DNA from: an uncultured Campylobacterales bacterium
GTDB taxonomy: Bacteria; Campylobacterota; Campylobacteria; Campylobacterales; CAZCQG01
NCBI GenBank assembly: GCA_964500775.1
Contig: CAZCQG010000003.1
Coordinates: 13,324 to 77,323 of the forward strand
Direction of reading: 5' to 3'
Length of the DNA: 64,000 bases
The position numbers and the translations under genes were made by a program. Of the stretch, positions 1,731-55,638 are shown one piece after another (position 1 is the first letter of the stretch; each line of letters opens with the position of its first letter). Below the pieces are notes generated by a model. It saw only the letters and a list, made by a program, of their open reading frames with translations, was not told where the DNA came from and did not search any database.

Positions 1731-1732
1731 CG

Positions 1733-2680: not shown

Positions 2681-2710
2681 AAGTGAAACGTGAAATAAGA
2701 AGGAGTCATT

Positions 2711-4150: not shown

Positions 4151-4823
4151 CGAGGAGATCAAAAGAGAGAGCCTCAAAGACTTCAATGTGTCATCACATA
4201 CGCATGCGGTAGATTCTTTTGCCGACGAACTCAAAGAGTTTAAAAAAGAGGATACTTACGAGATTCCCGATCGATACTTTATCAACAACATAGTTCTCCT
4301 TCCCGTAAATTCGGAAACGGGATATTTTTATTGGGAAGTGACGCTTGATTTTGTAGCGGGAAAATGCGATAGAGAGATTGAAAATTTTGTCGTAAGGGTT
4401 TATGAAATCGATAGCGCGACTGCTTTGGGGCAGTATGATATTTACGGGCAGAAAGGGGGATATTATTTCTCTACGCATAGTGCGAATAAAAATATTTTTG
4501 CTTTACTCGGTGTTTTTGATGAGAAAGGGGAATTTATCGAGATTCTAAGATCCAATACCGTGAAGATGCCCTCCGATTTTATTATCGAAAGTGACGAGAC
4601 GATGTGGGCGGACAAACTTGAAGATTGGACGGAGATACTCAATGCTTCGCTAGAAAAAATCGAAATAGGTTCGTCGGAGAATATGATCAAAGAGATTGAG
4701 AGCATAAAAAGATACCATAAGCTACGTGTTGATTTGAGTGGAAGAGTGGGCGCGAGTTCGCTTAGCTCCGGAGAGTTTTTAGGGAGTTCGAATACCTCCA
4801 GCTTTAGCTTGAGCAAGAAGTAA
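4131..4823 (+). CDS. DUF4912-like protein of glycogen gene clusters (function unknown)
   Basis: 230 aa. The ATG overlaps the glgA 3' end by 20 nt. The block IVLLPVNSETGYFYWEV resembles the DUF4912 core (llprdP.w.y.yWei). The C-terminal tail is Ser/Gly-rich and low in complexity. Confidence 0.5.
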   Translation: MEIKNSSEEIKRESLKDFNVSSHTHAVDSFADELKEFKKEDTYEIPDRYFINNIVLLPVNSETGYFYWEVTLDFVAGKCDREIENFVVRVYEIDSATALGQYDIYGQKGGYYFSTHSANKNIFALLGVFDEKGEFIEILRSNTVKMPSDFIIESDETMWADKLEDWTEILNASLEKIEIGSSENMIKEIESIKRYHKLRVDLSGRVGASSLSSGEFLGSSNTSSFSLSKK

Positions 4824-4834
4824 GGAGGAGGGTT

Positions 4835-6412: not shown

Positions 6413-7252
6413 TTGAAAGAGCTTATCGTTGATGCCGGCGGTACGAATTTTAGAGCACTTTTAGAGACTGACGGGAGAGAGACGAAGAGATTTCACGCCG
6501 ATTATACACAACGAGGTTTTTTGGCATTGCTCGAAGAGGGCGTGTGTCAACACGGACCCGATGTCGTGTCAATATCCTTTGCGGGGCAAATAGAGGATGG
6601 GACGATAAAATCTTCTCCGAATATCCCCATAGCTCCGATGAATATCGCTCGTTATTTCCGAGAAAAGTATGATGTCGAACTTTTTATAGATAATGATTTG
6701 AATTGCGCGGCATTGGCGGAGAGTGAGTATTTCGGCGTAGATCATACGCTAGTCGTGTATTCGGGTACGGGGCTAGGAGGTGCGTATGTGAGCGGGGGAA
6801 AAATTTTGCGCGGCGCACATAATCAAGCTCTTGAGATTGGGCATATTCCCTACAAAAAAACACCGTTATTGTGCGGATGCGGAAAAAGCGATTGTATAGA
6901 GCTTTTTGCGTCGGGAAGCGGTATCGCAAAAAGAATTAAACTACTGGGTTTAGAAGACAAAAACGAACTTGAGAATCTCATCAAAAGCGAAGATACACGT
7001 TTGCGAGAGATCTATGATGATTACATCGACGCAATGGGTTTTGCACTAGGAAGTGCCATTACGCTGCTCAATCCTTCGCTGATCGTTTTAGGCGGAGGAG
7101 TCTATAATGCAAATCGCGAGAGAGTACATCACGCACTCGTCGAATCTGCTAAAAAATACGCTATGCCGGTATCAATAGATTCTCTACGGTTTGAGAGCTC
7201 GCGACTTGCCGATGCGGGGATACTTGGAGCGAGATTGCTAAAGAGGCTTTAG
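6413..7252 (+). CDS. ROK-family glucokinase
   Basis: 279 aa. The TTG start directly abuts the previous stop. Motifs include N-terminal DAGGTN, the GTGLGG sugar-kinase motif and the ROK zinc motif CGCGKSDCIE. Confidence 0.8.
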   Translation: MKELIVDAGGTNFRALLETDGRETKRFHADYTQRGFLALLEEGVCQHGPDVVSISFAGQIEDGTIKSSPNIPIAPMNIARYFREKYDVELFIDNDLNCAALAESEYFGVDHTLVVYSGTGLGGAYVSGGKILRGAHNQALEIGHIPYKKTPLLCGCGKSDCIELFASGSGIAKRIKLLGLEDKNELENLIKSEDTRLREIYDDYIDAMGFALGSAITLLNPSLIVLGGGVYNANRERVHHALVESAKKYAMPVSIDSLRFESSRLADAGILGARLLKRL

Positions 7253-7271: not shown

Positions 7272-8990
7272 TTAATCGGCAAGTAGGGTATCGATTTGTT
7301 GAATACAATTCATAAGTTTGGCATCAAAACGGTGAAGATTCTCCATACATTCCCCCGACAGAACTGCATTTCTAAAAGAGCGCAATTCATTCGTCAATAA
7401 TTTAGCGTAATCGTATAAATCCGCTCGTGCGAGGGCATCAAGGTTTTCAAGAGCCGTTTTCTCTATCTTTGATACCATTGAAGAGAGCGCATACCCTAAT
7501 TCCTTATATTCATAAATCGTATTTAGGACTTGATGATAAGTAGCAAAATAGAGATAGAGCTTTCTCATAAACGCCGCATCCAAGGTATCCTTCGCGTAAA
7601 AAATATCCAAAATCTCCGACTCAAGCGTCTCTATTTGCTCTAACGAATTTCTTTCGATTGAAGATATTTTTTTGTCGTTGGAATATGTAGATTTTGGATT
7701 TTGGGTATCTAGATGATGAATATTAAAAAAAACGGTATCATCGGACGCTTTGCAGTTCGTTTCAGAATCTTCAAATATGCGAGTTTTTCTTTCATCGAAG
7801 CTCGTAATGAGATATTTGAGATTCTCGGTAAAATCAATCATCGATGCGCCTATCGTGTCAAGCGATTTATTATCGGCGACAAATATATCGTTTTGCCATA
7901 CCCCGATGCTCTCGACGGTCGCAATGACTATTTCTTTAAAGCTGTTGTCGTTACCCGTGAGTATCCCGAAGTCGCCGTCTTCGAGTAAGACCATCATGGA
8001 TACGAGTAAAGATACGATTTCATCAAAAACCTCAAAATCTTTTAAAAGTGCTTTATAATGAGCGATGGATTCGGCAAGGCGAATTGCTAGATTTTCGTCT
8101 TTGGGTTCTTTAATGAAGTTAAGTGCTTTTTTATAGACATCAAAGTAGAAAAGGCGTAGTTTTTCGGGATCGAATTTTTTCTTTTCGGAAAGCTCTAGTA
8201 GGGCAGCGAACGCCAACGTGTTTTTCTCTTCTTTCGCTCCGATGCTTTGTATATGGTCTTCTATGTTTTCAAGATTCTCTTGGATTCGACTATATTGCGG
8301 AGGGAGCTGTGAAAAATAGATCCTCCCCATCTCCGTAAAAATCGCATCAATTTTTTGCGAATCCCTCATTGTATTTGAAAAAAAATCGTATCCCGTATTT
8401 TCGAGTTCTACTAAAAAGCTCTTTCTAACGCAACTCTCTTTTGAAATATTTTTTTGTCTTAAAAAGGCGTAATTTCCTACGGTTTCATTTACGACCAAAG
8501 CCTCAAAGTAGTTGATATTTTTATCGTTTCTTTCGTACACGATCGTATTTTTATCGTTTTTCAGCGGATTGTTTTCCCACGCCCTAATCTTGTCGTAAAC
8601 GCTATCAAGCGTGACGTTCTTGTTGTTCAAAAATAAACTCAACGCTTGATTGTTCGCACCGAAGCGCCTTTTGCCTACCATACCCAAAACAAGCTCAAGT
8701 CTCTTTTTGTTGTCGATAGTAGCGTTTGCTATTTCAAGATAGTAGAGCCTATCGACCTTGAGGCTTTGCTCTTTGTAGGTGATCTCGTCTATAAAATTAT
8801 TTTTCTCTTGCTTGTAATTGAGCAGATAAATAAAATGGCTATTTTGATCGTGCTCCGTGATAGAGATAAAGCACTTTTTATAAGGAAGGGTAGTATCGCC
8901 GTCTTCAAGCTCGAAACTAAAAGTATGGGCAAACTCTTTAAGTCTAGCTATTTTGTTCTTGATGCCGTATTTGCTCTCGAAAATAGCCAC
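7272..8990 (-). CDS. hypothetical protein, 572 aa, no recognisable domain
   Basis: Long uninterrupted ORF. The ATG lies 4 nt downstream of the stop of the EAL-HDOD gene on the same strand. There is no signal peptide, TM segment, P-loop or catalytic motif that I can recognise. Confidence 0.7.
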   Translation of the reverse strand: MAIFESKYGIKNKIARLKEFAHTFSFELEDGDTTLPYKKCFISITEHDQNSHFIYLLNYKQEKNNFIDEITYKEQSLKVDRLYYLEIANATIDNKKRLELVLGMVGKRRFGANNQALSLFLNNKNVTLDSVYDKIRAWENNPLKNDKNTIVYERNDKNINYFEALVVNETVGNYAFLRQKNISKESCVRKSFLVELENTGYDFFSNTMRDSQKIDAIFTEMGRIYFSQLPPQYSRIQENLENIEDHIQSIGAKEEKNTLAFAALLELSEKKKFDPEKLRLFYFDVYKKALNFIKEPKDENLAIRLAESIAHYKALLKDFEVFDEIVSLLVSMMVLLEDGDFGILTGNDNSFKEIVIATVESIGVWQNDIFVADNKSLDTIGASMIDFTENLKYLITSFDERKTRIFEDSETNCKASDDTVFFNIHHLDTQNPKSTYSNDKKISSIERNSLEQIETLESEILDIFYAKDTLDAAFMRKLYLYFATYHQVLNTIYEYKELGYALSSMVSKIEKTALENLDALARADLYDYAKLLTNELRSFRNAVLSGECMENLHRFDAKLMNCIQQIDTLLAD

Positions 8991-8994
8991 CCCG

Positions 8995-10245
8995 TTACCC
9001 TTTTATGTTTTTTATATGATTAAACGTCCATTCAAAAGATTCTTTGAGCATATCGATATAGCTGTTCATATCGATATTGAGTTTGTCCAAAAGCTCGATA
9101 AGTTGTTTGAAGTCGTTTTTTTCCGAAGCGATAGAGAGCTCGAGCATTACGCCGAGTACTCCGGAGCGGTTGATGAGGGCGTCTTTGATGTCGTTTTCAA
9201 AATTCGTGTCCATAATAACCGATTTGATGTCGGAGTTAAAAAGGGCATCTAAGGTGGATAAGATTCCTACTAAAAATGCTTTTTCATTAAGCCTCCTGTC
9301 TACTTTTTTCGTGAGAGATTGCATAAGCTTGGCTCGAATCATCCCGCTTTCTAAAAGCGAAAGGGAATATTTACTCATTTTAGAATCGGTGTACAAGAAG
9401 AGCAAAAGCCAAGTTTTGAGTGTTTTTCTACCGAGATAGTTTATAGCTTGCCTAATAGAGCTAATCTCATTTGTTTTCGCGACGGAAGCTCTATTGACGT
9501 ATTGTAATAAATTGATAATGATGTCGGGATAGCTTCTCAATGTTTTTACTATAGATTCGGTATCTACGTCTCTATCGAGTTGATTATATATTTGAAACAC
9601 CCCTTTTGCGCCGGGGGTGAGAGAGTGAAACTTGCTAGTATCGGGTTTGTGAAAGAAGAAACCTTGAAAGTGGGAAGCTCCGCAGTTCTTTGCTTCTTCG
9701 TATTTCTCTAGAGATTCGATTTTCTCTCCGATAACGACAATTTCGTCTTTGAGCGATTTCACGTACTTTATAAATTCAAACGCCTCTTTAAAACCGACGA
9801 CCGAAAAATCGATTTTAATAAATTGCAGGTAGTCGATAAGTTCTTTAACCGATTTTTTTGATGCGTTGTCGCAATGAATATTATCGATCGCGATCCCAAT
9901 CCCTTTGTCTTTGATTTTTTGGAGTATCTCTAGATTCTCCGCTTTTGCATCATAAGAAGCTCTAACCTCGAATATAAAATTATTAAAATCCATAACTTCC
10001 AGTATATCTTCGGCGATACTAAGATCACCCCCGATATTTATGAAAACTTTATGATTTTCGAAAATATTTTTCGTATAGATATAGTTTGCGATGATGAAGA
10101 CGACATTCGCGGTGGCTTTTCTATCATTAGGTTTGTTTGCGAGAGGGTTTTCCCCGTCTCTGTAAAAGACTTCATAGTACTCTATTTTTCCGGATGTATC
10201 AAAAATCGGCTGTCTTCCGAAATATATGCAATCGCTTGTTTCCAT
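8995..10245 (-). CDS. EAL-HDOD two-domain c-di-GMP signalling protein (COG3434-type) with a partly degenerate EAL site
   Basis: 416 aa. EAL blocks are RQPIFD, YEVFYR (ExLxR), INIGG, FEVRAS, AIDNIHCD (in place of DDFGTG), IKIDFS, GEKIES (EGVE) and FQGFFF. The C-terminal half has an HDOD-like block (IRQAINYLGRKTLKTWLLLFLY). Confidence 0.8.
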   Translation of the reverse strand: METSDCIYFGRQPIFDTSGKIEYYEVFYRDGENPLANKPNDRKATANVVFIIANYIYTKNIFENHKVFINIGGDLSIAEDILEVMDFNNFIFEVRASYDAKAENLEILQKIKDKGIGIAIDNIHCDNASKKSVKELIDYLQFIKIDFSVVGFKEAFEFIKYVKSLKDEIVVIGEKIESLEKYEEAKNCGASHFQGFFFHKPDTSKFHSLTPGAKGVFQIYNQLDRDVDTESIVKTLRSYPDIIINLLQYVNRASVAKTNEISSIRQAINYLGRKTLKTWLLLFLYTDSKMSKYSLSLLESGMIRAKLMQSLTKKVDRRLNEKAFLVGILSTLDALFNSDIKSVIMDTNFENDIKDALINRSGVLGVMLELSIASEKNDFKQLIELLDKLNIDMNSYIDMLKESFEWTFNHIKNIKG

Positions 10246-17105: not shown

Positions 17106-19478
17106 TCAACGAAAGCTTTTTTCAACAAGTCCTCTGTGCATCAAACCGTAAAACATCTCCAAATAACGACGAATCTCTTCTCTGTCTTTGTTGGTGACGT
17201 GTTTATAGAAGCCGTAAACTTTTGAGAGGGCGAGTAGCCTGTCGGTGTAGTGTCTCCAGTTGTACTCTTCGTTTACTCGCCGCAGCGCTTGATTTGAGAT
17301 ACTTTCCCACAATGCAAAACCGTCGTTGTTATTGTGTTCGAAAAAATCGACTAGCGTTTTTGTGGAGCGCTCTTTATCGGTAGGGTCGATATGATAGCCG
17401 CTGATTTGATCTTGTATGATCTCCAATGGACCTCCGTATTTAGTGGCGAAAACAGGAAGTCCGCTACTCATTGCCTCTATGACCGTTAGTCCAAAAGCTT
17501 CAAAAAGCGCAGGTTGGACAAACACCCCTTTTTTATCGGCGATAAAGCGATAAATCTCTCCCGAGAGTTGTTTTTCTAGCTGCACTCCGAGCCAACGACA
17601 ATCATTATCGAGGGAATATTTATCAAAAAGTGCGTGCATAGTTTGGATCTGCTCTATCTCCTCTTGGTCTTTTGATTTTTGCGTATCGGTATAGCCTGCT
17701 ACGATAAGGAGATTTGCCATACTTCTTAGGGCTTTGCTCTCGCCGTACCACTCAACTAGCGAGGTGAGATTCTTTACTTTATCAAGCCTAGCGATACTAT
17801 AGATGATGGGCTTTTCGATGTTTAGTAGCTCTCCTCTGCTTTTATCGTCGGGTTTTCCGTAGATGAGATTCTCTATCTCTTCATTGAGGAGGTATTTTCT
17901 CGATTCTCTATTATAGTAGGGGAAAAATATCTCCTCATTTGCGCCCGGAGAGATGATATTAAACTTCGGGTCTCTGACGTCTAATCCGTTTACGACCTGA
18001 TAGAGTTCGGGTAAGGTGAAATGCTTGTAGGATTCGTATTGTCCCACGCTTTTTTCATTGCCTGCTATCTCTTGATAGGTGCTCGTGATGATAAAATCCG
18101 CCGAGTTCATCGCAATCAAATCTGCGGTAAATTGGCACGAGAAGTGGTATTCGTCTTCATTGTCCCTCCAATAGAGGTCGGAGAAAAGGTATTTTGATTT
18201 TTCGAGAGCATGCGCGATGTTACATTGCGTCACTTTGAGCTGTTGCGATAAAAGGGTCGCCACGAGATTCCCATCAGAGTAGTTACCGATGATGAGATCG
18301 GGCTTTGAGCCAAATTCAAGAAGCAGCTCGTTTTTTGCATCTATGGCAAATCGTTCCAAATAGGGCCAAATCTTAAATCTCGAAATCCAAGAATCTATGA
18401 TATTGCCGCTACTATCGCTAAAAGGGACACGCAAAATCTTTGCATGCTCACATCCCCATATCTTTTCGATTCTCGTATCGCACGTCGTCCCTTCGGATTC
18501 GGGGATGAGCCTTGTGAGGACGATTATTTGGGGTTTGATATTGAGCCCTTGTGAGGCTATATTTTCCATCATCTTTTTTTCCAATGAACGCACTTGGTCA
18601 AGTATATAGACGACCTGACCTCCCGTATCGGGGAATCCAAGGACGTTTGACTGTCCGAAGAATCCGTGGGGCGAGATGATGGCTACTTTGAAGATCATCG
18701 GGATGATAGAGATAAATCTCTCCAAATCCTGCGGTTCGGGATCGAGCAGGATTTTTTGAAGGAGTTGTAGATTCTCGATTATATTTTTCTTGTTGATTCC
18801 CCAGCCGGCTTCAAAGCCTAGCGAGGTCATAGCATCTTTAAAAGAATCATAGGGCGTGTCGTCATCATAAGATCTAATATCGGTAAAAAGTGTTTCGATA
18901 GCTTGCTGCAATGTCTCTTCGGAATCAATCCTTTCATTGATCATAAAGCTGATACCTTCGTACTTATGAAGCTTCAAATAATCTAAGAAGTCTTTTCTGT
19001 ATTTTTGATTATTTTTCAAAGAGCGGCAGAGATGGATATTGAGATTCTCTATCCCTTTCCCGATAGATTGCTTATCGGGAACTTTTGGAAAATCCCTGAT
19101 AAAGGGCTCAAAATCAAGTTTGAGCGACCACGTCTCTTTATGGTGTCTCCCGACAAACTTCTCTTTAAAATCCAAATACGCGCTTGTCTTGACCTCGGTG
19201 TATTGGAGACTATCGATGTCAAACGCATAGTGCTTCCACTCTCCCACATCGGTGCGGATAGCACCGTAGAGTTTTGGATACTGCATCGTAAGTTCTTGGA
19301 TTTTATCTATGATTCCAAATATCTCTTCTTTAGAATCTTTAAGTTGTTTTGAGAAATTGTCATACGCTTTTAGTATCTCCGTCTTTAAAATTATCCTATC
19401 TCCATTTTCGATTATCCTCCGAAAAAAGATAAAAAATTCACTCTTGTATTTATTTAAAACCGATTCAATCTCGCACAT
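17106..19478 (-). CDS. sucrose synthase (GT4)
   Basis: 790 aa, the typical SuSy length. A long N-terminal regulatory region precedes a GT-B core with FVQPALFEAFGLTVIEAMSSGLPVFATKYGGPLEII. It overlaps the upstream SPS gene by 14 nt. Confidence 0.85.
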   Translation of the reverse strand: MCEIESVLNKYKSEFFIFFRRIIENGDRIILKTEILKAYDNFSKQLKDSKEEIFGIIDKIQELTMQYPKLYGAIRTDVGEWKHYAFDIDSLQYTEVKTSAYLDFKEKFVGRHHKETWSLKLDFEPFIRDFPKVPDKQSIGKGIENLNIHLCRSLKNNQKYRKDFLDYLKLHKYEGISFMINERIDSEETLQQAIETLFTDIRSYDDDTPYDSFKDAMTSLGFEAGWGINKKNIIENLQLLQKILLDPEPQDLERFISIIPMIFKVAIISPHGFFGQSNVLGFPDTGGQVVYILDQVRSLEKKMMENIASQGLNIKPQIIVLTRLIPESEGTTCDTRIEKIWGCEHAKILRVPFSDSSGNIIDSWISRFKIWPYLERFAIDAKNELLLEFGSKPDLIIGNYSDGNLVATLLSQQLKVTQCNIAHALEKSKYLFSDLYWRDNEDEYHFSCQFTADLIAMNSADFIITSTYQEIAGNEKSVGQYESYKHFTLPELYQVVNGLDVRDPKFNIISPGANEEIFFPYYNRESRKYLLNEEIENLIYGKPDDKSRGELLNIEKPIIYSIARLDKVKNLTSLVEWYGESKALRSMANLLIVAGYTDTQKSKDQEEIEQIQTMHALFDKYSLDNDCRWLGVQLEKQLSGEIYRFIADKKGVFVQPALFEAFGLTVIEAMSSGLPVFATKYGGPLEIIQDQISGYHIDPTDKERSTKTLVDFFEHNNNDGFALWESISNQALRRVNEEYNWRHYTDRLLALSKVYGFYKHVTNKDREEIRRYLEMFYGLMHRGLVEKSFR

Positions 19479-21612
19479 AATTTACCTCCCCGTCACCGAA
19501 AAAATCGTAATAGTGTATACCTTCTAATATCCCCATCGCATAGTCTTTATGGGCAAAATAGATGTTGATATTGCCTCGAAGCTTGTTTAGCTCATTGGAG
19601 TAGTTGCCCACCACTACCCCTAGCGTGCTATCTTTAAGCATCTCCTCGTCATTTCCCGAATCTCCGGCGACCAAGATATTTCCGAAAGGGACACCCCATT
19701 TTAGCGCCATAAATCGTATCGCATGCCCTTTTGAGGCGCGTATAGGCAAGATGTCCAAAAACTCGCCGTGGGAAAAAATGACATTCGCTTTGACTCCCGA
19801 GCGTCGCAGATATTTCCTGATCTCGGTGATTCTCGGAGCTTTTTTCGTATCGATAAGATAGCTGATTTTATGCTCTCGTTGTTCAAGTTTTGATTGCAGT
19901 TTGATACCCGGAATATTCGATAATAGCGACTTTATCTTAGCATTATCCCAAGCGTGGCTTATGTGCTTATTCCAAGAGTGCTCTTGTTTCCAAGTTTTGC
20001 CGTAATGAATCTCCGCTCCTACTGATGTGATAAAGAGATCAGGCGTGGGTACTCCCCATTCTTCGAGTACTTTTTTTGCGCTTTGCAGATTTCTCCCTGT
20101 CGCTACCCCGAATACCAATTTATCTTTATTGGAATCCAATACGTCGATCAGTTGTCGTAGCGAGGTATTGTCCCCTAGGAGCGTGTTGTCGATGTCGCAA
20201 ATGAGAAGGCGATTCATCAAAGAGAGTTTTTGTGTCGGTTTTAAAAATTCGACATTAGGATGTAATGCAGGCTTGATGTATTTTTCGATATTTTTAATAT
20301 AGTTATTGACGTGACTTTTCCAAGTGTAGGTTTTGGGTGTCTTTATAGTGCCGTTTCGTGAGAATTTACTCCAAAGATTCTTGTCTCTTAAGAGTTGTAA
20401 TAGAGCCTCTTGGATCTGTACTTTGTCTTGAGGATCGACCAAAATACCATTTTGGAGATTCTTGATTATATCTTTCGGACCGCCGTCATTTGTCGATACT
20501 ATCGGTACTCCACACGCAGAAGCTTCAATAAGCGTCAACCCAAACGGTTCGGTGAGCGCGGCGTTTATAAAAACTCCTTTTATATTTTTTGCATTTCTGT
20601 AAAATGAAGGAATATCTTCGGATGAATGTTTTTTCGGATAGGCGACTTTTCCGTAAAGTTCAAATTTGTCGATATGTAAGAGGACTTGCGTGAGTACTTT
20701 TCTCTGACCCGAATCCATAGCGGTGATGTCGTCTCTATTACCCAAGATCAATACGAGATTCGCCGCGGCTTGTAACTCCGTACTTTCTCCGTACGCTTCT
20801 AACAGTCTTTGGATATTCTTTCTCTCATCAGCCCTACTTATTGCTAGAATGATGGGTTTTGAGGGATCTTTGAGGAACTCATCGTAAATCTTGGCAGAAT
20901 TTTTATCGTTGATATTAGAGGTTGAGAAAAATTTTTGTTCGTCGTAGCCGGGCGGAAGTACCGTCATTTTGCTTTTTTGGTAGTTTTCGTAGATTCTGTA
21001 TTGCTCTTCTATCTCTTGAAAAGTGCTTGCGACGACGAAAGAGGCGACACTTAACGTAAATTCCTCGGCTTCGATACGCATCTCTATGTTGTACTTTTCC
21101 CTGATTTCATTAATATCGGCTCCGTTGTCCAAAAGCCTCCTTTTCTTTTCACGCCCCAAGGAGTGTCCCGTAAACACCAAGGGAATCTCTAGTAATGAGC
21201 TAAGCGAAGCACCGACATATCCCGCATCTGCATAATGGGCGTGGATAAGGGTGGGAATCATTTTGATTCTTTTAAAATGCAATAAAACTCCGTCAGTGAA
21301 ATAATCCAAATACGGCCACAATGATTCTTTGCGCAAATATCTCCGAGGACCGCACGGAATACGAATAATGGCTGCTTTTTCGGTGAGCTGTTCATATTCT
21401 TGGGAGTAGATAGGATCGAGTTTACTATCGCGAATCTGCCTCGTGATAAGATCCACCCTTGCGACTTTAGGATGCTCCGAGAGCGCTTTTGCTAGCTCTA
21501 CGACGTATCTTGTTTGCCCTCCCGTATCGGCATCTTTGCCAAGTTCGAGATTCTCTGCTCGTATGAGTCCGTGTATACTTATCAAGGCGATATATAATCC
21601 CTCCTGTTTCAT
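19465..21612 (-). CDS. sucrose-phosphate synthase fused to a sucrose-phosphate phosphatase-like HAD domain
   Basis: 715 aa. The N-terminal GT4 domain has DTGGQTRYVVELAKAL and EPFGLTLIEASACGVPIV. The C-terminal HAD domain has DIDNTL (DxDxT), GVATGR and GDSGNDEEML. Confidence 0.85.
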   Translation of the reverse strand: MKQEGLYIALISIHGLIRAENLELGKDADTGGQTRYVVELAKALSEHPKVARVDLITRQIRDSKLDPIYSQEYEQLTEKAAIIRIPCGPRRYLRKESLWPYLDYFTDGVLLHFKRIKMIPTLIHAHYADAGYVGASLSSLLEIPLVFTGHSLGREKKRRLLDNGADINEIREKYNIEMRIEAEEFTLSVASFVVASTFQEIEEQYRIYENYQKSKMTVLPPGYDEQKFFSTSNINDKNSAKIYDEFLKDPSKPIILAISRADERKNIQRLLEAYGESTELQAAANLVLILGNRDDITAMDSGQRKVLTQVLLHIDKFELYGKVAYPKKHSSEDIPSFYRNAKNIKGVFINAALTEPFGLTLIEASACGVPIVSTNDGGPKDIIKNLQNGILVDPQDKVQIQEALLQLLRDKNLWSKFSRNGTIKTPKTYTWKSHVNNYIKNIEKYIKPALHPNVEFLKPTQKLSLMNRLLICDIDNTLLGDNTSLRQLIDVLDSNKDKLVFGVATGRNLQSAKKVLEEWGVPTPDLFITSVGAEIHYGKTWKQEHSWNKHISHAWDNAKIKSLLSNIPGIKLQSKLEQREHKISYLIDTKKAPRITEIRKYLRRSGVKANVIFSHGEFLDILPIRASKGHAIRFMALKWGVPFGNILVAGDSGNDEEMLKDSTLGVVVGNYSNELNKLRGNINIYFAHKDYAMGILEGIHYYDFFGDGEVNYVRD

Positions 21613-22469
21613 AGCACTCCTTTGTAAAAATTTTTGTCGTAGCTAATCGCACCTTTGATGTCGCAAACCGCGGATGCGAGGTGCAATGCGTACTCCAAGC
21701 GCTCTTGCGTAGAAGCGCCGTGCGATAAGCCGTAAATATACCCCGCACAAAACGCATCTCCGGCGCCTACGCTATCGATAAAGTGCTTTGCGGGTTTTAT
21801 CTCGGCGGTATATTTTTTTTCTCGCGTGATGATCTCTGCACCGTCGGCACCTTTGGTGAGGATTATCTCTTTGATATTTGTCTCTTGAAAGATTTGTTGC
21901 AAAATGTCGGAATCTCGAAAGATATTTTCCGAGAGCCAAAGGAGTTCATCGGCATTTAATTTGAGATAGTCGGAATCCTCTAGGAGAAGTTTTATTTTTT
22001 GTGCATCGACGTAAGGCGGGCGGAGATTAATGTCGAAAAAAATATCGGCATTCGAGTTGTTTTTCAATATGCAAAGACTCTCATACGTGACACTACTTCT
22101 AAGTGCCAATGTGCCGTGATATAGGAGTGTATTTTCGGGTGCAATGAAGTTGCTCGGCATTTGAATATGATCGTAGGCCCTCTGCTCTAAGATTTCATAC
22201 GAAGGCTCACCGTTTATCAAAGAGACCTGTACGGCACCTGTCGGAAAAGCATTTGTTTGTAAGTCGCCATCTCGTAAGTCTAGCGTTTTATACAAACGCT
22301 TTATTTCGTTACCGGCATCGTCATCTCCTACGGCGGTAATAAAACGGGAATTTACCTGAAGATTTGTCAAGTGGTAAAAGAGGTTAAAGGGCGCGCCGCC
22401 CAAGATTTTTATGTCGCCGAAAAAATCGAACAACACCTCCCCGAAAATTAAAATATTAGAATAACTCAT
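21609..22469 (-). CDS. PfkB-family fructokinase
   Basis: 286 aa, with N-terminal GEVLFDFF..LGGAPFNL and C-terminal DSVGAGDAFCAG. It overlaps the SPS start by 4 nt. Confidence 0.75.
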   Translation of the reverse strand: MSYSNILIFGEVLFDFFGDIKILGGAPFNLFYHLTNLQVNSRFITAVGDDDAGNEIKRLYKTLDLRDGDLQTNAFPTGAVQVSLINGEPSYEILEQRAYDHIQMPSNFIAPENTLLYHGTLALRSSVTYESLCILKNNSNADIFFDINLRPPYVDAQKIKLLLEDSDYLKLNADELLWLSENIFRDSDILQQIFQETNIKEIILTKGADGAEIITREKKYTAEIKPAKHFIDSVGAGDAFCAGYIYGLSHGASTQERLEYALHLASAVCDIKGAISYDKNFYKGVL

Positions 22470-33553: not shown

Positions 33554-35686
33554 TTAGTTTTTTAATCTCGCTATTATCGTATTGAGGATCGGAAGGTTTT
33601 TATACCCTTCCTTATCCCCTTTGATTTTTATCTCTTTATAATACCCCTCAAGTTTATTTTCAAATGCCACCCTCTGAAGCTCGTCTATCTTGCCGTATCG
33701 TTGGATAAAATATTCAAAACTTTTATTCCAATCGATGTCGTCTTTTTCGTGAGAGTTTGCATTTATCTCAAATTCTTTTAAATACGATATTTTCATAATC
33801 GAGCAAACTTTTTCTTTCCAATATTCACATTCGGCTATTTCTCCGAGTCTATCGATGGCTATAAAGCTCCGTCCTTCTAAAGCGCTTTCGTATGCGTAGT
33901 TTATTATATCTTTGACCTTGTGGTTGAAGTCTATAAACTCGTTGAGAGATTTGAGCTGCGGCGATTCGCTGATAAGGGCATAAGCTCTTTTGATCTCGTT
34001 ATTTTGTGCAGTTTCGATAAATTGGAGTTTTTTCTCGATGAGTTTCACTCTTGCTTTGGCGAGATTTTTATACGGCGCGAACGTGCTTAGCAGATTGGCA
34101 TATTCGGTGGCTTTTTGGAAATTTTGCGAGTTTTCGAGTTTGTTGATATTATCCATCACTTGTTCGGCAAAATTCAACATTTTTTTGTAGAGATCGGTGT
34201 CTTTTAAAAACGTAAATTTTTCACAGAGGGTAAAGTATTGAGCATAACTCCTCTCTTTGACGAGTTTATCGGCAATAGCGTATTTGTCGGAGTTGTTGAT
34301 GAGGTTTAAAACAACGTCTTTTTTTGATTTTACGTTTGCAAACGGTTCAAGAATCCTACGAGCAGGTTCTTTGTTATTGTTTGGATCTTGGTAAAGTAGC
34401 TTTTTTGCATTCACGAACGCTAAATTCCAACTGTTTTCGAGCGACTCGAATTCAGTAGTTTCTTTGATCTCTGGATATTTATTGGCAAGCTCGTATGCCA
34501 ATTGGACATTTTTCCCTTGAATAGCATCCAAAAATTCGGCGATAGTCTGTTTTTGGGAGATATAAAAATCGAATTCTTGCTTTTTTTCTGCGTCGTCTAT
34601 AAAGAGTGATACGGTTTGCAGTGCTTCTTGTATTTGATTTTTTGCGAGTAAATCTATAGCCACTTTCATCGTGGATTTCCAGTTTTCCTCAAGGAAATTG
34701 GAAAATTCGGGATACGTTTTTAAAAAAATATTCTTTTCGCACAAAGCAATAAGTTTTTTTATCTCTTTTACGGCGATCGCTGCAAGAAGCTCTTCTTTGT
34801 TTTCGGCGATATTTACGACCGATATTGTTCCGTCTATAAACCCGATAAGCAGTGCATCGTTGATTTGCGTCACTTTGGTCATCCCGATATTCTCAAAAGT
34901 GAGCGTTTTTAATAAAGAGTTTGAAGTCGTGTCCATAAGATAAAGGAGATTGCTTCGAGTCGCTATCGCACAGTATTTTCCGCCATTGAGAAGCGTGAGC
35001 GAGGTTGGCCAATCGTTGATACTTTTAGATTCGGCGATTTTCTTTTTTTCATCTATGGAGTATATGCCCGTGGTGCCGTCTTTGCAGGCATAAAATACCG
35101 TGCTTTGCGGTGTAAAAGTTACTGCCTCGGCGATGTCGGGAGTCTCAAACTCGCCGAGGGTTTTACTTGATTCGAGGTCATATATTTGGCATTTCTTGTC
35201 AAATCCGGATATTGCCAAAAGTTCACCCTCTTTTTCGAAGGCAAAGTCGGAAATATAATCGGGTCTAGGGTCCAAAATGGCGTAGGGTTCATAATCGGGA
35301 GCTTTGAATACAAAAGTCTTTCCGTCTTCGCCGCCGCTCAATATGTACTCGTCGCCGTTTGCAAACATTGTGGTATAGATACCGGCTTTGTGCCAAAAAA
35401 GTGATTTAAAATTTTTTAGTCCGTCGCGCGTGTCAATAAGAAACGATTTTGATGAGTTATTGAGTACTAAACAGATGATTCCGTTCGAAGAAGTTGAGAT
35501 GGATTTGCTGTATTTATGTAGCGGTGCTGCCTTTTTGGTTATATTTACACTTTTAAGAAAGTTTAACTTTTGAATATTTAGTAAATAATAGTTGTACAAA
35601 TTATCACAAATAGAAACATTATCTCCACTTTGTTTTATACTTATGACACTTCCGTTTACTTTTACAGTATCCTGCTTTGGTACCAA
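33554..35686 (-). CDS. cytoplasmic beta-propeller (WD40-like) plus alpha-helical repeat protein, function unknown
   Basis: 710 aa. Roughly the first 300 aa show repeated strand-turn blocks (ILSGGEDGKTFVF, LLAISGFDKKCQIYDL, FYACKDGTTGIYS, LLIGFIDGTISVVN). The remaining ~400 aa are helix-rich and repeat-like. There is no signal peptide. The TTG start has AGGGG upstream. Confidence 0.6.
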   Translation of the reverse strand: MVPKQDTVKVNGSVISIKQSGDNVSICDNLYNYYLLNIQKLNFLKSVNITKKAAPLHKYSKSISTSSNGIICLVLNNSSKSFLIDTRDGLKNFKSLFWHKAGIYTTMFANGDEYILSGGEDGKTFVFKAPDYEPYAILDPRPDYISDFAFEKEGELLAISGFDKKCQIYDLESSKTLGEFETPDIAEAVTFTPQSTVFYACKDGTTGIYSIDEKKKIAESKSINDWPTSLTLLNGGKYCAIATRSNLLYLMDTTSNSLLKTLTFENIGMTKVTQINDALLIGFIDGTISVVNIAENKEELLAAIAVKEIKKLIALCEKNIFLKTYPEFSNFLEENWKSTMKVAIDLLAKNQIQEALQTVSLFIDDAEKKQEFDFYISQKQTIAEFLDAIQGKNVQLAYELANKYPEIKETTEFESLENSWNLAFVNAKKLLYQDPNNNKEPARRILEPFANVKSKKDVVLNLINNSDKYAIADKLVKERSYAQYFTLCEKFTFLKDTDLYKKMLNFAEQVMDNINKLENSQNFQKATEYANLLSTFAPYKNLAKARVKLIEKKLQFIETAQNNEIKRAYALISESPQLKSLNEFIDFNHKVKDIINYAYESALEGRSFIAIDRLGEIAECEYWKEKVCSIMKISYLKEFEINANSHEKDDIDWNKSFEYFIQRYGKIDELQRVAFENKLEGYYKEIKIKGDKEGYKNLPILNTIIARLKN

Positions 35687-50289: not shown

Positions 50290-51099
50290 ATGAATATGAG
50301 TGATATTAATACTTGGATGGGGTTTCTTAGCGGCTATTCACTGAAAATACTCGGATCGTTGCTTATCTTTGTTTTCGGTATCTATATGTCTAAGATTCTC
50401 AAAAAATATCTTAGTAAAGGGCTACAAAAGACCAATCTAGATGCTACGATCATCAAATTTTTAGAGAATGTTCTCTATTTTGTATTGCTCATCTTAGTAG
50501 TGATTTTTGCCTTGAGTAATCTCGGCGTACAGACGGCTTCTATCATAGCGGTACTCGGTACGGCAGGTTTGGCGATTGCTTTGTCGCTCAAAGATTCGCT
50601 CTCTAATATCGCTTCGGGGATTATGATCGTGGGGATGCGATATTTTAGGGTAGGGGACGTGATAGAGGTATCGGGTAATATCGGTACGGTAAAAGAGATA
50701 CAGCTTTTTATCACGAAGATGACGACGTTTGACAACAAAGAGATCATTATTCCCAATAAAGACATAGTAAACGGAAGCGTAATAAATGTGACCGCCAACG
50801 ATACAAGGCGGGTAGAGTGGATATTTGGGGTAGGGTATGACGAGGATGTGAAAAAAGTGAAATCTGTTTTGGAAGAGATACTGAATGCCAATACGTTAGT
50901 ACTTCAAGACCCCGCACCGCTCGTGGCGGTAAATGGACTTAACGACTTTAGCGTCGATTTTATCGTGCGGGCATGGTGTAAAAAAGAGGACTATTTGGAT
51001 CTGATGCTGGGAGTCAACGAATCGGTGAAGATTCGCTTCGATGCCGAGGGGATCGAAATACCGTATCCAAAACGGGAATTAAAGATCATCCAAGGCTGA
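50290..51099 (+). CDS. small-conductance mechanosensitive channel (MscS family)
   Basis: 269 aa with three N-terminal TM helices and the conserved block FRVGDVIEVSGNIGTVKEIQLFITKMTTFDNKEIIIPN. Confidence 0.9.
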   Translation: MNMSDINTWMGFLSGYSLKILGSLLIFVFGIYMSKILKKYLSKGLQKTNLDATIIKFLENVLYFVLLILVVIFALSNLGVQTASIIAVLGTAGLAIALSLKDSLSNIASGIMIVGMRYFRVGDVIEVSGNIGTVKEIQLFITKMTTFDNKEIIIPNKDIVNGSVINVTANDTRRVEWIFGVGYDEDVKKVKSVLEEILNANTLVLQDPAPLVAVNGLNDFSVDFIVRAWCKKEDYLDLMLGVNESVKIRFDAEGIEIPYPKRELKIIQG

Positions 51100-52137
51100 A
51101 GCCGCGGCTTTGAGGCGCTCTTTGTCGAAATGGGTGTAGATTCTTGAGGTATTGAGATCGGCATGCCCGAGCGCTTCTTGCACGAGGACTAGGTCGCGAT
51201 TTTTTTGATAGAGACGGGTGGCAAAAGTGTGGCGGAGCATATGGGCGCCGTTTTTCTCTTTGCGGATACCTGCGTGGAGCAGTATCTTTTCCATGATCTT
51301 ACTCACATACGCCTGCGAGAGAGGAGTGCCGCTGTTATTGCAGAAGAGGTGGGTGCCCTCGCATCGCCGCTTCTCTAGCCATTCGGTCATATCTTTGGCG
51401 ATATAGCGCTCTTTGATCATTGCGATTCTTGGCTTGTTCCCTTTTCCTTTGACCCTAAAAACATAGAAACCCTCCTCTAGTGTAATCTCTTTTGTGGTAA
51501 GTCCCAATGCTTCGCTCACGCGCATCCCCGAGTAGAGTATAGTTTTTATAAGAAGTCTATTTTTTGCCTGCACCGAGGGCTTGAAAGGGCAGGTGTCTAT
51601 CGCCTCTAAAAATCGCTCGATCTCATTATCTATCATATATGCAGGTAGTTTTTGCCCGCTTTTTCCCGTGATGCCACCCCATTTTTTCAGTTCGATTCTA
51701 AAGAGGTGCGATTTCTCGTCCTCTTCGTTTTGCTTCTCGATATAGCCGAAAAATGAGATCATCGCAATACGGTAGTTTTTCTTTGTAGCATCACTAAGAC
51801 CGCTCGTGCTTGCAGCGAGAAAATCGGCGATCATCTCCTCATCTATTTCTTTTAGAGATTCTAGTCCTAGGGAGCAGAGATTTTTGTAGAGTTTTTCGAG
51901 TGGATTTATGTAGGTATTTATCCCTATCAAACCGATATTGCGTGCCTCTTTCGCTAGTGCTTTAAGAGCGTTAATATCTAACGTCTCTTTATTGAGGCGT
52001 AGCAAGATTTTCGCCAACGCATCAGAATCTTTAACCTGTCTATTCGAAAGGGTAGTGAGTTTATTGCGGATATAGCGGTTGAGCCAAAAAAGGAGCGACT
52101 CTGCAAATGTGGCTTCAGCATCAAGTTTGTATCGCAT
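51079..52137 (-). CDS. xerH: XerH-type tyrosine site-specific recombinase
   Basis: 352 aa. The catalytic set is R (GMRVSEALGL), HxxR (HMLRHTFAT) and H...Y (LGHADLNTSRIYTH). The size and long N-terminal domain resemble single-recombinase Xer proteins of Helicobacter and Campylobacter. Confidence 0.7.
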   Translation of the reverse strand: MRYKLDAEATFAESLLFWLNRYIRNKLTTLSNRQVKDSDALAKILLRLNKETLDINALKALAKEARNIGLIGINTYINPLEKLYKNLCSLGLESLKEIDEEMIADFLAASTSGLSDATKKNYRIAMISFFGYIEKQNEEDEKSHLFRIELKKWGGITGKSGQKLPAYMIDNEIERFLEAIDTCPFKPSVQAKNRLLIKTILYSGMRVSEALGLTTKEITLEEGFYVFRVKGKGNKPRIAMIKERYIAKDMTEWLEKRRCEGTHLFCNNSGTPLSQAYVSKIMEKILLHAGIRKEKNGAHMLRHTFATRLYQKNRDLVLVQEALGHADLNTSRIYTHFDKERLKAAASALDDL

Positions 52138-52165: not shown

Positions 52166-52969
52166 CTAATTCAATTCCATATTTGCATAATTTTTCCAAA
52201 AATCTTTCCATCCTGTCTCGTGGGTGCAATTGTCAATTCGAATAATATTCTCTACTCCACTTTTTTCGGTAAAACTTTTTGTCACTTGCAGAGGGACGAT
52301 AGTGTCACTATTGCAAACAATGTGCATATGGGGAATGGTCTTAAGATTTGACGCATAATCGGCAGGATTAAGAGAACCTTTTAATAGAGAGATATTATGA
52401 AAATGACTAAGAGCGATGTGGTCAATATTTCCTGCCACGGTTATTATTTTGGCTATGTCATCTCTATATTCCGACAAAAGAATCGCGATAGCCGCCCCGC
52501 CGGAGTATCCTACGATTTCTATTTTTTGTTTGGGAGTTTTTTTCAGTTCATTTATCGCGTTGTTGATTGACAAAACAACCTCTTTGGCAAATCTGTGGCT
52601 AGTCCAATATTTTACGGTACACTTTTCATCGTCTGTGTACTGACAAGGTCTAGCTATATAGGCAATATTCGGATAAGAATCAACGGATGCTAACTCCAAA
52701 GCTACAGGATTTGTTGGAGTAGGGTTGCTGGATGGTGTGTATCTGTTTTCCCATGCAAAACCGTCACCTTCTATATAGAACCTGATTGGTTTTTCAATAG
52801 CATCTATCCTGCTTAGCGTAAATATCTTGAATGTATCGGTGGCGACTATATGAGAATTAAGACTAGAGTGCAGAGCCAATGAATCTTTGAGTGAAAATCT
52901 ATTTTCGAGTGAAAGCTTTGAGCAGGAGAGAAAAATCAATGGGAAAATAAAAAGCAAAATACGAAACAT
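52166..52969 (-). CDS. secreted/lipoprotein alpha/beta-hydrolase
   Basis: 267 aa. The signal sequence ends in FLSC. The nucleophile elbow is GYSGGA, and Asp and His lie downstream (NSDTIV, CTHETGW). Confidence 0.6.
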   Translation of the reverse strand: MFRILLFIFPLIFLSCSKLSLENRFSLKDSLALHSSLNSHIVATDTFKIFTLSRIDAIEKPIRFYIEGDGFAWENRYTPSSNPTPTNPVALELASVDSYPNIAYIARPCQYTDDEKCTVKYWTSHRFAKEVVLSINNAINELKKTPKQKIEIVGYSGGAAIAILLSEYRDDIAKIITVAGNIDHIALSHFHNISLLKGSLNPADYASNLKTIPHMHIVCNSDTIVPLQVTKSFTEKSGVENIIRIDNCTHETGWKDFWKNYANMELN

Positions 52970-52984
52970 AACTTTGCTTTTACC

Positions 52985-53010
52985 TATAATCAGGGAAAAC
53001 CCTGATTATA
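52985..53010. terminator. hairpin downstream of the autotransporter gene
   Basis: TATAATCAGGG-AAAA-CCCTGATTATA, an 11-bp perfect stem 8 nt after the stop codon. Confidence 0.6.
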
Positions 53011-53017
53011 TCGGTAA

Positions 53018-54940
53018 TTAGAATTTAAACTTGGCAGTTAATCTAACATCGTGACTTGTTAAGTCAGAGTTGGTGTTTAAACCATAGTCAAAGCTTAGTT
53101 CTTTAGAGTTGTCGTCAGTTACATATTTTAGACCCGCACCTACAACGCCAGAAAGCTCAGAAGTTTCTACACCGTCTGTTTTAAATGCGCCGCCACCTGC
53201 AACGAAGCTAGAGTTTGCAGAAGCATAGTTATCGCCCATATTATATGAAGCACCTAGTTTAAGTTCTGGAATTAGAGTTCCATTTGACTTTTTGTACTCT
53301 TTACTAATGGCTACACCTGCATCAAGGATAAATTTATCTAGGTCCTCAATAGCTACTTTCAAAGGAATGCCGGCAGTACTTTTCTCTGTATATGAATCAA
53401 AAGAGACGTTTGTATAAGTTAAAGATGCCATAGGAGTAAGCATTAAATCATTATATTGCTTAGGCATGCCTGCACCCACTCTTGCAGAGAATACTTGAGA
53501 ATCGTACTCTGCGGTATAAATATTTGCCGCCGCATCTTGTCTGCTTACGTCGTTTTTATTGATACCGTATGCCAAAGAGCCTTCAACATAGAATTTATCG
53601 TAAGTTTTGCTTCCATAAACGGTTAGTTGATAAGCATCAATATCGTTAGATGATTTTGTAACAGGATCGTTTCCTGAAACGTCAGTAGCACCGTAGCTGA
53701 ATGCGATACCGACAAGTGCAGTGTCGTTAAGATATTTTTCTAGACCGAAAACTACACCGCCGCCGTCAGCTTCATAACCTTGTACGCCTTTATTGTCGCC
53801 ATGGTCTTGATTTACATAGTAACCTTGTACCCAAAATGCTTTGCCAAGACCCATGTTTCCTGTTGCTATACCGCTTTCGGCTAGGTCTGCTCTAGCAGTT
53901 TTCATATGTGAACCGATGGTATTGAATACGCTTGTTGTTGTCGCTACAGCACCTACACCTGCAGAAGATACATCAGGCAATAAAGTATTCAAGTAATTCT
54001 TTAGCGTAGCAACACTTAAATCTGTTGCATTTAAGTCTTCCATCATGGCTGCGTTTGTTGAAAGGGCTACTTTGATCGCCTCTGTATACAATGCAGCTTC
54101 ATTTCCGGAAAGACCAAGATTTGCTGAAGTATTATAGTCTGCACCGATCGATATATTTCCATCAGCACCAAGAGATGTGTATATATTATATGTGACCAAA
54201 ATATTGTTTGTGAGCAGCGAGCTATCAACACTTGCTACAGATAGGTTGACATCGTTAGCACCAGAGTAAACACGTAGAACAGTTACGTTGTTATCTGCAT
54301 CGTCACCTCTTACTAAGCCGTAGCCAAGAACTACGGTAGAGATATTAGCATCTCCGTAAACTGTCATGGAGCCGCCGTTATGAAGATGAACGACATCGGC
54401 ATATACGGTTTCGTTTGCTGTAGCAGTACCGACTGTTAGAGCACCTTCGGATACATTCACATCAGTTCTTACTCCGCCAACACCTATTGAGCCCATCAAC
54501 GATACCGCTGCCGTAGTTTTGAATATACCAGATCCATTGATGTCTGTGTAGATAGTACCTGCTTCGTCAACCAACAATGTTGCACCTGAGGTGATACCTG
54601 TTCTGTAAACATAATAAGCGTCACCTTTGATTGTAGTAGTGCCACTTGTAACGTTCAATTCGCTAACGTTCTTGTCAGCCGCACCGATTGAAAGTATAGT
54701 CGTATCTGCACCGATATACACGCTACCGTTGTTATCAGAGCTTGTCGTAATGCTACTAATAGTTGCCGCAGAAGTGATTGTTAGGTTACCCTCAACACCA
54801 TCCGTATCCCAAGCGAAGTTAAACGAGCTTCCGTCAGCTTGAGTTTTGTTAGTGTCATTAATATCTACAGTCGCCGCAGAAACCGAACTGCCAAGCAACA
54901 ACCCACATACTACTCCCGAAATGGCTATCTTTTTTACCAT
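53018..54940 (-). CDS. autotransporter (type Va) outer-membrane protein with a T/S/G/N-rich passenger
   Basis: 640 aa. A signal peptide (MVKKIAISGVVCGLLLGSSVSAA) precedes a ~330-aa low-complexity beta-helix-like passenger. The C-terminal ~270 aa show an alternating-hydrophobic beta-barrel pattern ending in LTAKFKF. Confidence 0.8.
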   Translation of the reverse strand: MVKKIAISGVVCGLLLGSSVSAATVDINDTNKTQADGSSFNFAWDTDGVEGNLTITSAATISSITTSSDNNGSVYIGADTTILSIGAADKNVSELNVTSGTTTIKGDAYYVYRTGITSGATLLVDEAGTIYTDINGSGIFKTTAAVSLMGSIGVGGVRTDVNVSEGALTVGTATANETVYADVVHLHNGGSMTVYGDANISTVVLGYGLVRGDDADNNVTVLRVYSGANDVNLSVASVDSSLLTNNILVTYNIYTSLGADGNISIGADYNTSANLGLSGNEAALYTEAIKVALSTNAAMMEDLNATDLSVATLKNYLNTLLPDVSSAGVGAVATTTSVFNTIGSHMKTARADLAESGIATGNMGLGKAFWVQGYYVNQDHGDNKGVQGYEADGGGVVFGLEKYLNDTALVGIAFSYGATDVSGNDPVTKSSNDIDAYQLTVYGSKTYDKFYVEGSLAYGINKNDVSRQDAAANIYTAEYDSQVFSARVGAGMPKQYNDLMLTPMASLTYTNVSFDSYTEKSTAGIPLKVAIEDLDKFILDAGVAISKEYKKSNGTLIPELKLGASYNMGDNYASANSSFVAGGGAFKTDGVETSELSGVVGAGLKYVTDDNSKELSFDYGLNTNSDLTSHDVRLTAKFKF

Positions 54941-55051
54941 TTTCCCCTCCAGTTAGATTTGTTTTTCATCCATTCATTCAAAGAGACGAGTTTAACATAA
55001 AAAAAATAAATTAGATTAAAAAAAATACTAAAATTGCCGATAGGCTGACGA

Positions 55052-55071
55052 AAATGTAGCTTAAATGTAGC
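55052..55071. repeat. tandem direct repeat AAATGTAGC x2 with 11-bp periodicity
   Basis: AAATGTAGC-TT-AAATGTAGC lies in the 227-bp intergenic region upstream of the autotransporter gene. Confidence 0.8.
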
Positions 55072-55084
55072 ATTATCGTTTAAA

Positions 55085-55112
55085 AGTTATGAAAACCGTA
55101 ATTTTCAATAAA
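55085..55112. other. candidate difH-like Xer recombination site
   Basis: AGTTATGAAAA-CCGTAA-TTTTCAATAAA has 11-bp arms, a 6-bp spacer and an inner inverted repeat TGAAAA/TTTTCA. The left arm matches the H. pylori difH left arm as I recall it. The site is 3 kb from xerH. Confidence 0.45.
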
Positions 55113-55131
55113 ATATCTTAGTGTGATGGGG

Positions 55132-55166
55132 TAGATACTGCATAGGAAAACCCTATGCAGTATCTA
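55132..55166. terminator. 15-bp perfect-stem hairpin immediately after the lipoprotein cytochrome c gene
   Basis: TAGATACTGCATAGG-AAAAC-CCTATGCAGTATCTA ends 1 nt before the stop codon at 55168-55170. Confidence 0.7.
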
Positions 55167-55167
55167 T

Positions 55168-55638
55168 TTAAAACGAAGCAATATATGTACTAAGTGCCTC
55201 TATGCTTTTCTCATCTAAGTTTTTGACTTGCGGAATCATAAGTGCTTTTCTTTCGTTTCCAAAGGTACCGTCTTTGTACCCTGATATTTTTTTACTCAAA
55301 TCGCTAGCACTTTGTCCTGCGAGTTTCGGGAAATTACCCAAGCCTTCTCCTTTTGCGCCGTGGCAAGTTGCACAAGTTTTATATTTGATAGTCGGATCAA
55401 AGGTTGATGCCGCTGATTCTACTTGTTGGATTGTATCCTTACTTATTTGGGCGATTTCCTTTTGTGCAGGAGGTGCAGGAGGTGCAGGAGGTGCAGGTTG
55501 TACCGGTACCTCTTGTTTTTGTACCTGCGTATTTTCTACTTTAGGTGTGTTTGTCTGTGTTTGCGTTTGTTTCTCTTCCCCGCAACCTACCAAAAGTGCA
55601 GTGCATACTGCTAATGATGTAAACCCTATTTTATACAT
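55168..55638 (-). CDS. lipoprotein monohaem cytochrome c with Pro/Ala-rich linker
   Basis: 156 aa with lipobox LLVGC, linker QTQTQT...PAPPAPPAPPA, haem motif CATCHG and a distal Met in KALMIPQV. Confidence 0.85.
   Translation of the reverse strand: MYKIGFTSLAVCTALLVGCGEEKQTQTQTNTPKVENTQVQKQEVPVQPAPPAPPAPPAQKEIAQISKDTIQQVESAASTFDPTIKYKTCATCHGAKGEGLGNFPKLAGQSASDLSKKISGYKDGTFGNERKALMIPQVKNLDEKSIEALSTYIASF
55464..55499. repeat. 9-bp tandem repeat (GTGCAGGAG x3 plus one partial copy) inside the cytochrome c linker
   Basis: It can be read directly at 55464-55499 and encodes the PAPPAPPAPPA stretch on the minus strand. Confidence 0.9.

Follow-up and report, generated by a model that had tools for sequence, protein, structure and literature searches.

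Among the described Xer systems, XerH/difH of Helicobacter pylori offers the closest comparison for the locus reported here. Its recombination site consists of two arms around a 6-bp central region, and its recombinase is a two-domain protein (PMC3325230; PMC5241119; PDB 5JJV, 5JK0). The same arrangement is found in the window, by which we mean the whole stretch of 64,000 nucleotides that was analysed. The left arm AGTTATGAAAA is identical to that of H. pylori, where difH has been characterised by experiment, and T4 and the extra base pair are part of this identity; both sites have C as first central base and TTTTCAA as inner right arm; and the recombinase encoded in the window is alike in its two domains, its catalytic residues and its size. 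In H. pylori 26695 the site lies a few kilobases upstream of xerH (1,981 bp), which resembles the situation in the window (2,947 bp). The two systems differ in that their XerH proteins are only 52% identical and that the host of the window is not a Helicobacter, whereas at the level of the site the central region is CCGTAA here and CTGCAC in H. pylori, and the outer right arm is TAAA here and ACTT there. The difH of H. mustelae 12198 (PMC3325230 Table 2) agrees with the window site at 26 of 28 positions and at 21 of the 22 arm positions, a likeness that concerns the site only.

The xerH-difH modules of Arcobacteraceae, Hydrogenimonas, Nitratiruptor and Wolinella (PMC2731167 and the related loci described below) have the site upstream of xerH and the gene transcribed away from it, and share the core and its polarity relative to skew with the window. 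However, the gap between site and gene is mostly 16-165 bp in these modules, compared with 2,947 bp and two unrelated genes here. The XerS/difSL system of streptococci and lactococci likewise couples a single recombinase to a related, linked site and requires FtsK (PMC1914069); it differs in belonging to another recombinase lineage and in the length of its site, which is 31 bp for difSL and 28 bp here. Classical XerCD/dif, as found in E. coli, Sulfurimonas and Sulfurovum, has the same function, 11-bp arms with a 6-bp spacer and an association with the terminus, but it employs two recombinases and has an arm consensus, ATAA with TTATGTTAA, that is absent here. A classical XerCD dif was accordingly rejected for the 28-mer, which contains neither the XerD arm TTATGTTAAAT nor a XerC arm ending in ATAA (classical dif sequences are listed in PMC2731167 Table 1). 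The difH and XerH of the window are an ordinary new example of a well-described dimer-resolution system.

The candidate difH site

The features discussed in this work are collected in Table 1.

Table 1. Position of the putative difH site, its parts and the neighbouring genes in the window
Feature	Coordinates	Strand	Description
Putative difH site	55085..55112	+	28 bp; motif match and matrix score
Left arm AGTTATGAAAA	55085-55095	+	11 bp of the difH site
Central region CCGTAA	55096-55101	+	6 bp of the difH site
Right arm TTTTCAATAAA	55102-55112	+	11 bp of the difH site
Intergenic gap with difH	54941..55167		227 bp
xerH	51079..52137	-	352 aa; PF18644 and PF00589; transcribed away from difH
Alpha/beta-hydrolase-like gene	52166..52969	-	Weak FSH1 and Abhydrolase_1 matches
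Autotransporter gene	53018..54940	-	Between difH and xerH; PF03797, 2.5e-48
Cytochrome c gene	55168-55638	-	Right-hand neighbour of difH

The sequence-only reading had singled out this 28-mer for its Xer-site layout and its perfect inner inverted repeat, and had proposed that it is the chromosome dimer resolution site and may mark the replication terminus. The layout is present as described, with the inverted hexamers TGAAAA and TTTTCA exactly 6 bp apart, and this TGAAAA-N6-TTTTCA core is seen once in the 64-kb window for an expectation of 0.01. The 28-mer itself, AGTTATGAAAACCGTAATTTTCAATAAA, is the only copy in the window, even when three mismatches are allowed, and it had no match in 100 shuffles. 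Its G+C content is 21%, compared with about 42% for the window; published difH 40-mers range from 10 to 22.5% (PMC2731167).

The site was scored with a matrix built from the 24 published difH sites of the 24-species table (PMC3325230 Table 2). It reaches 28.0 bits, the lowest of the 24 published sites being at 27.8, and the next best position on either strand of the window, within a gene at 58154, has 10.3 bits. The closest published sequence is the H. mustelae difH mentioned above. The H. pylori site that the sequence-only reading had quoted, AGTTATGAAAACTGCACTTTTCAAACTT, is exactly as published (PMC3325230 Table 1), and the identity that it had claimed for the left arm (11/11 positions) and the inner right arm is correct. 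When aligned to the 24-species table (PMC3325230), the window site carries the invariant TGAAAAC and TTTTCA and keeps the non-palindromic positions C23 (the first central base), A27 and T14. The last of these positions in the 50-nt alignment corresponds to T4 of the structure paper, whose substitution in the H. pylori left arm abolishes recombination (PMC5241119). Every invariant or functionally critical position within the XerH footprint is thus matched. Position 10 of the alignment is A in the window and T in 24/24 published species. Since this position lies outside the 30-bp crystal substrate and A also occurs in at least one related locus (L018, Hydrogenimonas), T at position 10 is not treated as a defining feature of difH.

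Given the match to published sites, the single copy in the window, the low-G+C intergenic place, the intact xerH upstream of which it lies and the linkage found among relatives, the 28-mer is very probably the chromosomal difH of this bacterium and the target of its XerH. In a metagenome scan, the pattern GTTATGAAAACNNNAATTTTCAAT was found in two unrelated short contigs, both of which are without xerH.

The intergenic gap and the genes around it

The candidate difH lies 144 bp upstream of the autotransporter start (54940, minus strand), 55 bp beyond the cytochrome c stop (55168, minus strand) and 2,947 bp upstream of the xerH start (52137, minus strand), in agreement with the earlier description of an intergenic site 3 kb from xerH. 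The promoter of the autotransporter must also be located in this gap. Between the cytochrome c stop and difH there is a perfect 15-bp hairpin (55132-55166), which is 19 bp away from difH, and a scan of the gap for promoters and terminators returned nothing relevant. Another hairpin, terminator-like, follows the autotransporter stop ahead of the hydrolase gene and xerH; the latter two are separated by 28 bp and may be co-transcribed. We know of no role for the autotransporter in recombination.

The base composition of these genes is unusual for the window. With 57 window genes as reference (mean GC3 0.451, standard deviation 0.049), the cytochrome c gene has a GC3 of 0.293, the autotransporter gene of 0.323 (z = -2.6) and the hydrolase gene of 0.358 (z = -1.9), and these three genes nearest to difH (52166-55638) rank among the four lowest of the 57. 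Terminus regions have been described as enriched in A+T, and the low GC3 beside difH would fit either such an enrichment or a recent acquisition of foreign origin. Within the cytochrome c gene, three tandem 9-bp units GTGCAGGAG (55464-55499) specify a short repeat rich in proline and alanine; this may serve as a flexible linker and may be variable in length.

The XerH recombinase

The recombinase gene of the window encodes a protein with the architecture of XerH, which consists of an N-terminal PF18644 domain and a catalytic PF00589 domain in about 350-363 aa. It matches H. pylori XerH (5jjv_A) over the full length with E = 3.6e-103 and 52% identity, compared with E = 1e-23 for XerD, and the NCBIfam models of XerC, XerD, XerS and XerA all score far under their cut-offs on it (78 bits for XerS, with a cut-off of 267). 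The window protein is XerH, nearer in sequence to XerH than to XerC, XerD, XerS or XerA. When aligned to the H. pylori protein, the catalytic residues are all kept (R206, K232, H299, R302, H325 and Y334), and K280 is the counterpart of the lysine that contacts T4 in the left arm. A second Xer-type recombinase, which the sequence-only reading had not seen in the window, was not detected by tblastn with XerH, and no PF00589 domain was found in the other window ORFs scanned with Pfam or NCBIfam.

Linkage of difH to xerH among relatives

The linkage was evaluated in 83 xerH loci, comprising the best 80 matches (one genome per species, 59-67% identity) and three metagenomic loci. A difH-type site is found in 47 of the 83, and in 47/47 it lies upstream of xerH, as in the window. 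The distance from the site to the xerH start codon is 23-165 bp in 44 of these loci, and 1.6, 3.9 and 9.3 kb in the other three. Published distances between difH and xerH extend from 16 bp to 215 kb, with 1,981 bp in H. pylori 26695 and 36-215 kb in several Campylobacter species (PMC2731167). The distance observed in the window is therefore inside the ranges of both the relatives and the published sites.

Beyond xerH, the window has no genes in common with the related loci. This is also the case for the contigs with the closest XerH (L082-L084), which hold no flanking gene in common with the window; in L082 difH lies 77 bp upstream of xerH, and none was found within the little sequence that L083 and L084 hold. 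The closest XerH relatives include Marinarcus, Sulfurospirillum and Hydrogenimonas at 64-68%, the best XerH match being at 68%. The best 80 matches include no Helicobacter genome; the only one with an H. pylori label, L069 (60%), comes from a metagenome bin. The best match of PheT outside its own contig is at 68% (one metagenome contig) and the next at 49%. The host is a deep-branching Campylobacterota lineage, without a close relative in the collections searched.

Several variations were observed among the relatives. In roughly half of the related loci, most of them Sulfurospirillum-type (L001, L003, L005, L006, L012, L038 and L039 are examples), no difH-like site occurs up to 10 kb from xerH, where the contig allows; the xerH-difH module is therefore unlinked in the Sulfurospirillum-type clade, as published for several Campylobacter. 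The Malaciobacter-type loci L058, L061, L063, L072 and L077 carry, at about 9950-9977, the core TGGAAA-N6-TTTCCA, in which A to G and T to C have changed together in the two arms and the palindrome is kept. Such a paired change is compensatory, as expected when one recombinase reads both arms. In L076 the change affects one arm only (TGAAAG / TTTTCA).

GC skew and the position of the terminus

The raw cumulative GC skew of the window peaks at 52-53 kb. The orientation of the genes had been described as mostly plus before 51 kb and entirely minus after it, and this is what we find: 13 of the 17 genes at 35.8-51.1 kb are on the plus strand and 14/14 at 51.1-64 kb on the minus strand. The switch of orientation at 51 kb coincides with the raw peak, which could arise from coding-strand bias alone. 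For this reason, the skew was computed from the G and C of fourfold-degenerate sites in a model that includes gene orientation as a covariate. On the plus strand, the synonymous-site skew is +0.118 to the left of difH (bootstrap 95% interval 0.080 to 0.157) and +0.005 to the right of it (-0.107 to +0.102). Of 51 gene boundaries, the best breakpoint is the very intergenic gap that holds difH (likelihood ratio 5.9; nominal p 0.016, or 0.047 with overdispersion; bootstrap P = 0.01). At third codon positions the skew passes from +0.109 to +0.018 across difH; when all codon positions are pooled, no significant change is seen.

The skew falls at difH and does not change sign in the 8.9 kb to the right of it. 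With gene orientation as covariate, a symmetric reversal at difH fits no better than no reversal, the change in log-likelihood being -0.17 at fourfold sites, -3.3 at third positions and -12.5 at all positions. The AT skew across the window is uninformative. Of the 20 genes at 7-36 kb, 16 are on the minus strand; with the terminus at difH, replication would meet these 16 head-on, so that gene orientation favours a terminus only close to difH. For published difH sites, the distance to the skew extremum ranges from 0.8 to 90 kb (PMC2731167 Table 2). The two parts of the original proposal thus fare differently: the identification as a dimer-resolution site is supported by the matrix, the linkage and the intact XerH, while the position at the terminus is supported only weakly, by a fall in skew without reversal. 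It is plausible that difH lies in or near the replication termination zone, the local support being weak.

The relatives provide a further point of comparison, for which we used loci in which difH is flanked on each side by 4 kb or more. When the site is read with its left arm first (TGAAAAC...), the left side has the higher GC skew in 23/23 relatives and also in the window, where the values are +0.072 on the left and -0.037 on the right. After correction for gene orientation the rule holds in 23/24. At 80% identity, the XerH proteins of the 24 polarity loci form eight clusters, and xerH occurs in both arrangements among these loci. The polarity of difH thus appears to be fixed relative to the replichores in the loci L002-L082 and the window, and in the limited set of Xer literature consulted we found no mention of such a fixed polarity. 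A clean sign reversal within 10 kb of difH is seen in only about half of the relatives, so that the window behaves as its relatives do. In the relatives xerH stands on either side of difH and is always transcribed away from it, which places it head-on to the incoming fork.

Alternative explanations

The skew to the right of the site, which does not reverse, and the 16 of 20 genes at 7-36 kb that would be head-on to a terminus placed here could also be accommodated if the 28-mer did bind XerH but were a displaced copy or a relic, carried along with xerH, the working difH being located at the true terminus elsewhere. Linkage is indeed not obligatory, as the 36-215 kb between difH and xerH in several Campylobacter indicate. 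We consider this explanation quite unlikely. A relic would be expected to decay, whereas no critical position of the site is altered; if a chromosome had two active direct copies, the intervening DNA would be deleted; and the site obeys the skew polarity rule of the relatives, with the best skew breakpoint at the site itself. The composition of the neighbouring genes raises another question, namely whether the site could be the attachment junction of an IMEX-type element, integrated by way of XerH, with which the autotransporter and the hydrolase arrived. Both genes between site and xerH have an atypically low GC3, like the cytochrome c gene on the other side, and the site directly abuts xerH in 44/47 relatives. 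On the other hand, the window contains no second difH-like site, even a degenerate one (the next position scoring 10.3 bits), there is no dif-like junction between 52.1 and 55.0 kb, and neither flanking repeats nor element boundaries, integrase or phage genes were found. Moreover, no XerH-dependent IMEX was found in the limited set of Xer literature, nor any description of a mobile element exploiting a XerH/difH system. We therefore judge such a junction very unlikely: with no second junction, repeat, integrase or phage gene, an Xer-mediated insertion is not supported. That the low-GC3 autotransporter and hydrolase genes (52166-54940) entered by XerH integration at difH, with subsequent decay of the second junction, is decidedly unlikely as well. 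A milder variant would have foreign genes land preferentially next to difH in this lineage.

It could further be argued that the site is mainly an operator, at which bound XerH would regulate the string of autotransporter, hydrolase and xerH instead of recombining. Its position 144 bp upstream of this co-oriented three-gene string ending in xerH, and the 23-165 bp that separate the sites of relatives from the xerH start, would be suitable for such a function. However, autoregulation would be a function in addition to recombination and no substitute for it, the site retains the asymmetric arms and 6-bp central region needed for recombination, and the terminator-like hairpin stands between the autotransporter and the hydrolase/xerH pair. 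An operator in place of a recombination site is thus extremely improbable. As regards a chance palindrome, the intergenic DNA is AT-rich here and could be thought prone to yield one, but for the core alone chance predicts 0.01 copies per window, and the 28-mer combines a 26/28 match to a published difH with the gene of the cognate recombinase nearby. Chance is effectively excluded. The chromosomal difH of this bacterium is the reading that we retain in what follows.

Proposed mechanism

For the difH of the window we infer XerH binding, the order of cleavage, dependence on FtsK and the position at the terminus. By analogy with H. pylori, two XerH monomers would bind the two arms cooperatively, AGTTATGAAAA being presumably the high-affinity arm and the first to be cleaved (PMC5241119, PMC3325230). 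Two sister sites would then synapse in antiparallel orientation as a tetramer at the division septum, where FtsK would license DNA bending and cleavage. The first pair of strands would be exchanged across the central 6 bp by the left-arm subunits; those on the right arm would then resolve the Holliday junction, converting the dimer to chromosome monomers. The site belongs to the conserved xerH-difH module, into which, in this genome, two low-GC3 genes are interposed between site and gene.

Genomic context and significance

The window is ordinary chromosome. It carries the housekeeping genes acnB, dnaJ, recR, serA, rpsA, ispH, aroA, pheST and ispG, together with hslUV, era, truD, nadAC, psd and efp, and contains no IS, phage or second recombinase; Rfam and tRNA scans gave no RNA genes in the window. 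With this locus, a dimer-resolution site and its recombinase are annotated in a deep-branching Campylobacterota lineage, and difH provides a landmark for ordering the contigs and locating the termination zone of the genome. The known range of the Helicobacter-type left arm (GTTATGAAAA) now extends beyond Helicobacter, and the understanding of Xer recombination is unchanged by this difH.

Some other features of the window deserve mention. A glycogen/alpha-glucan cluster at 12-7252 comprises two GH57 enzymes, one of amylase/4-alpha-glucanotransferase type and one of branching-enzyme type, as well as a starch synthase, a GalT-like protein, a DUF4912 protein and a ROK kinase. It is followed at 7272-8990 by a 572-aa ORF that has no Pfam match. 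At 33554-35686 a 710-aa beta-propeller (WD40-like) protein is encoded, with weak, sub-threshold family matches only. A sucrose cluster at 17106-22469 contains a sucrose synthase (TIGR02470, 1072 bits), a sucrose-phosphate synthase/phosphatase fusion and a PfkB-family sugar kinase.
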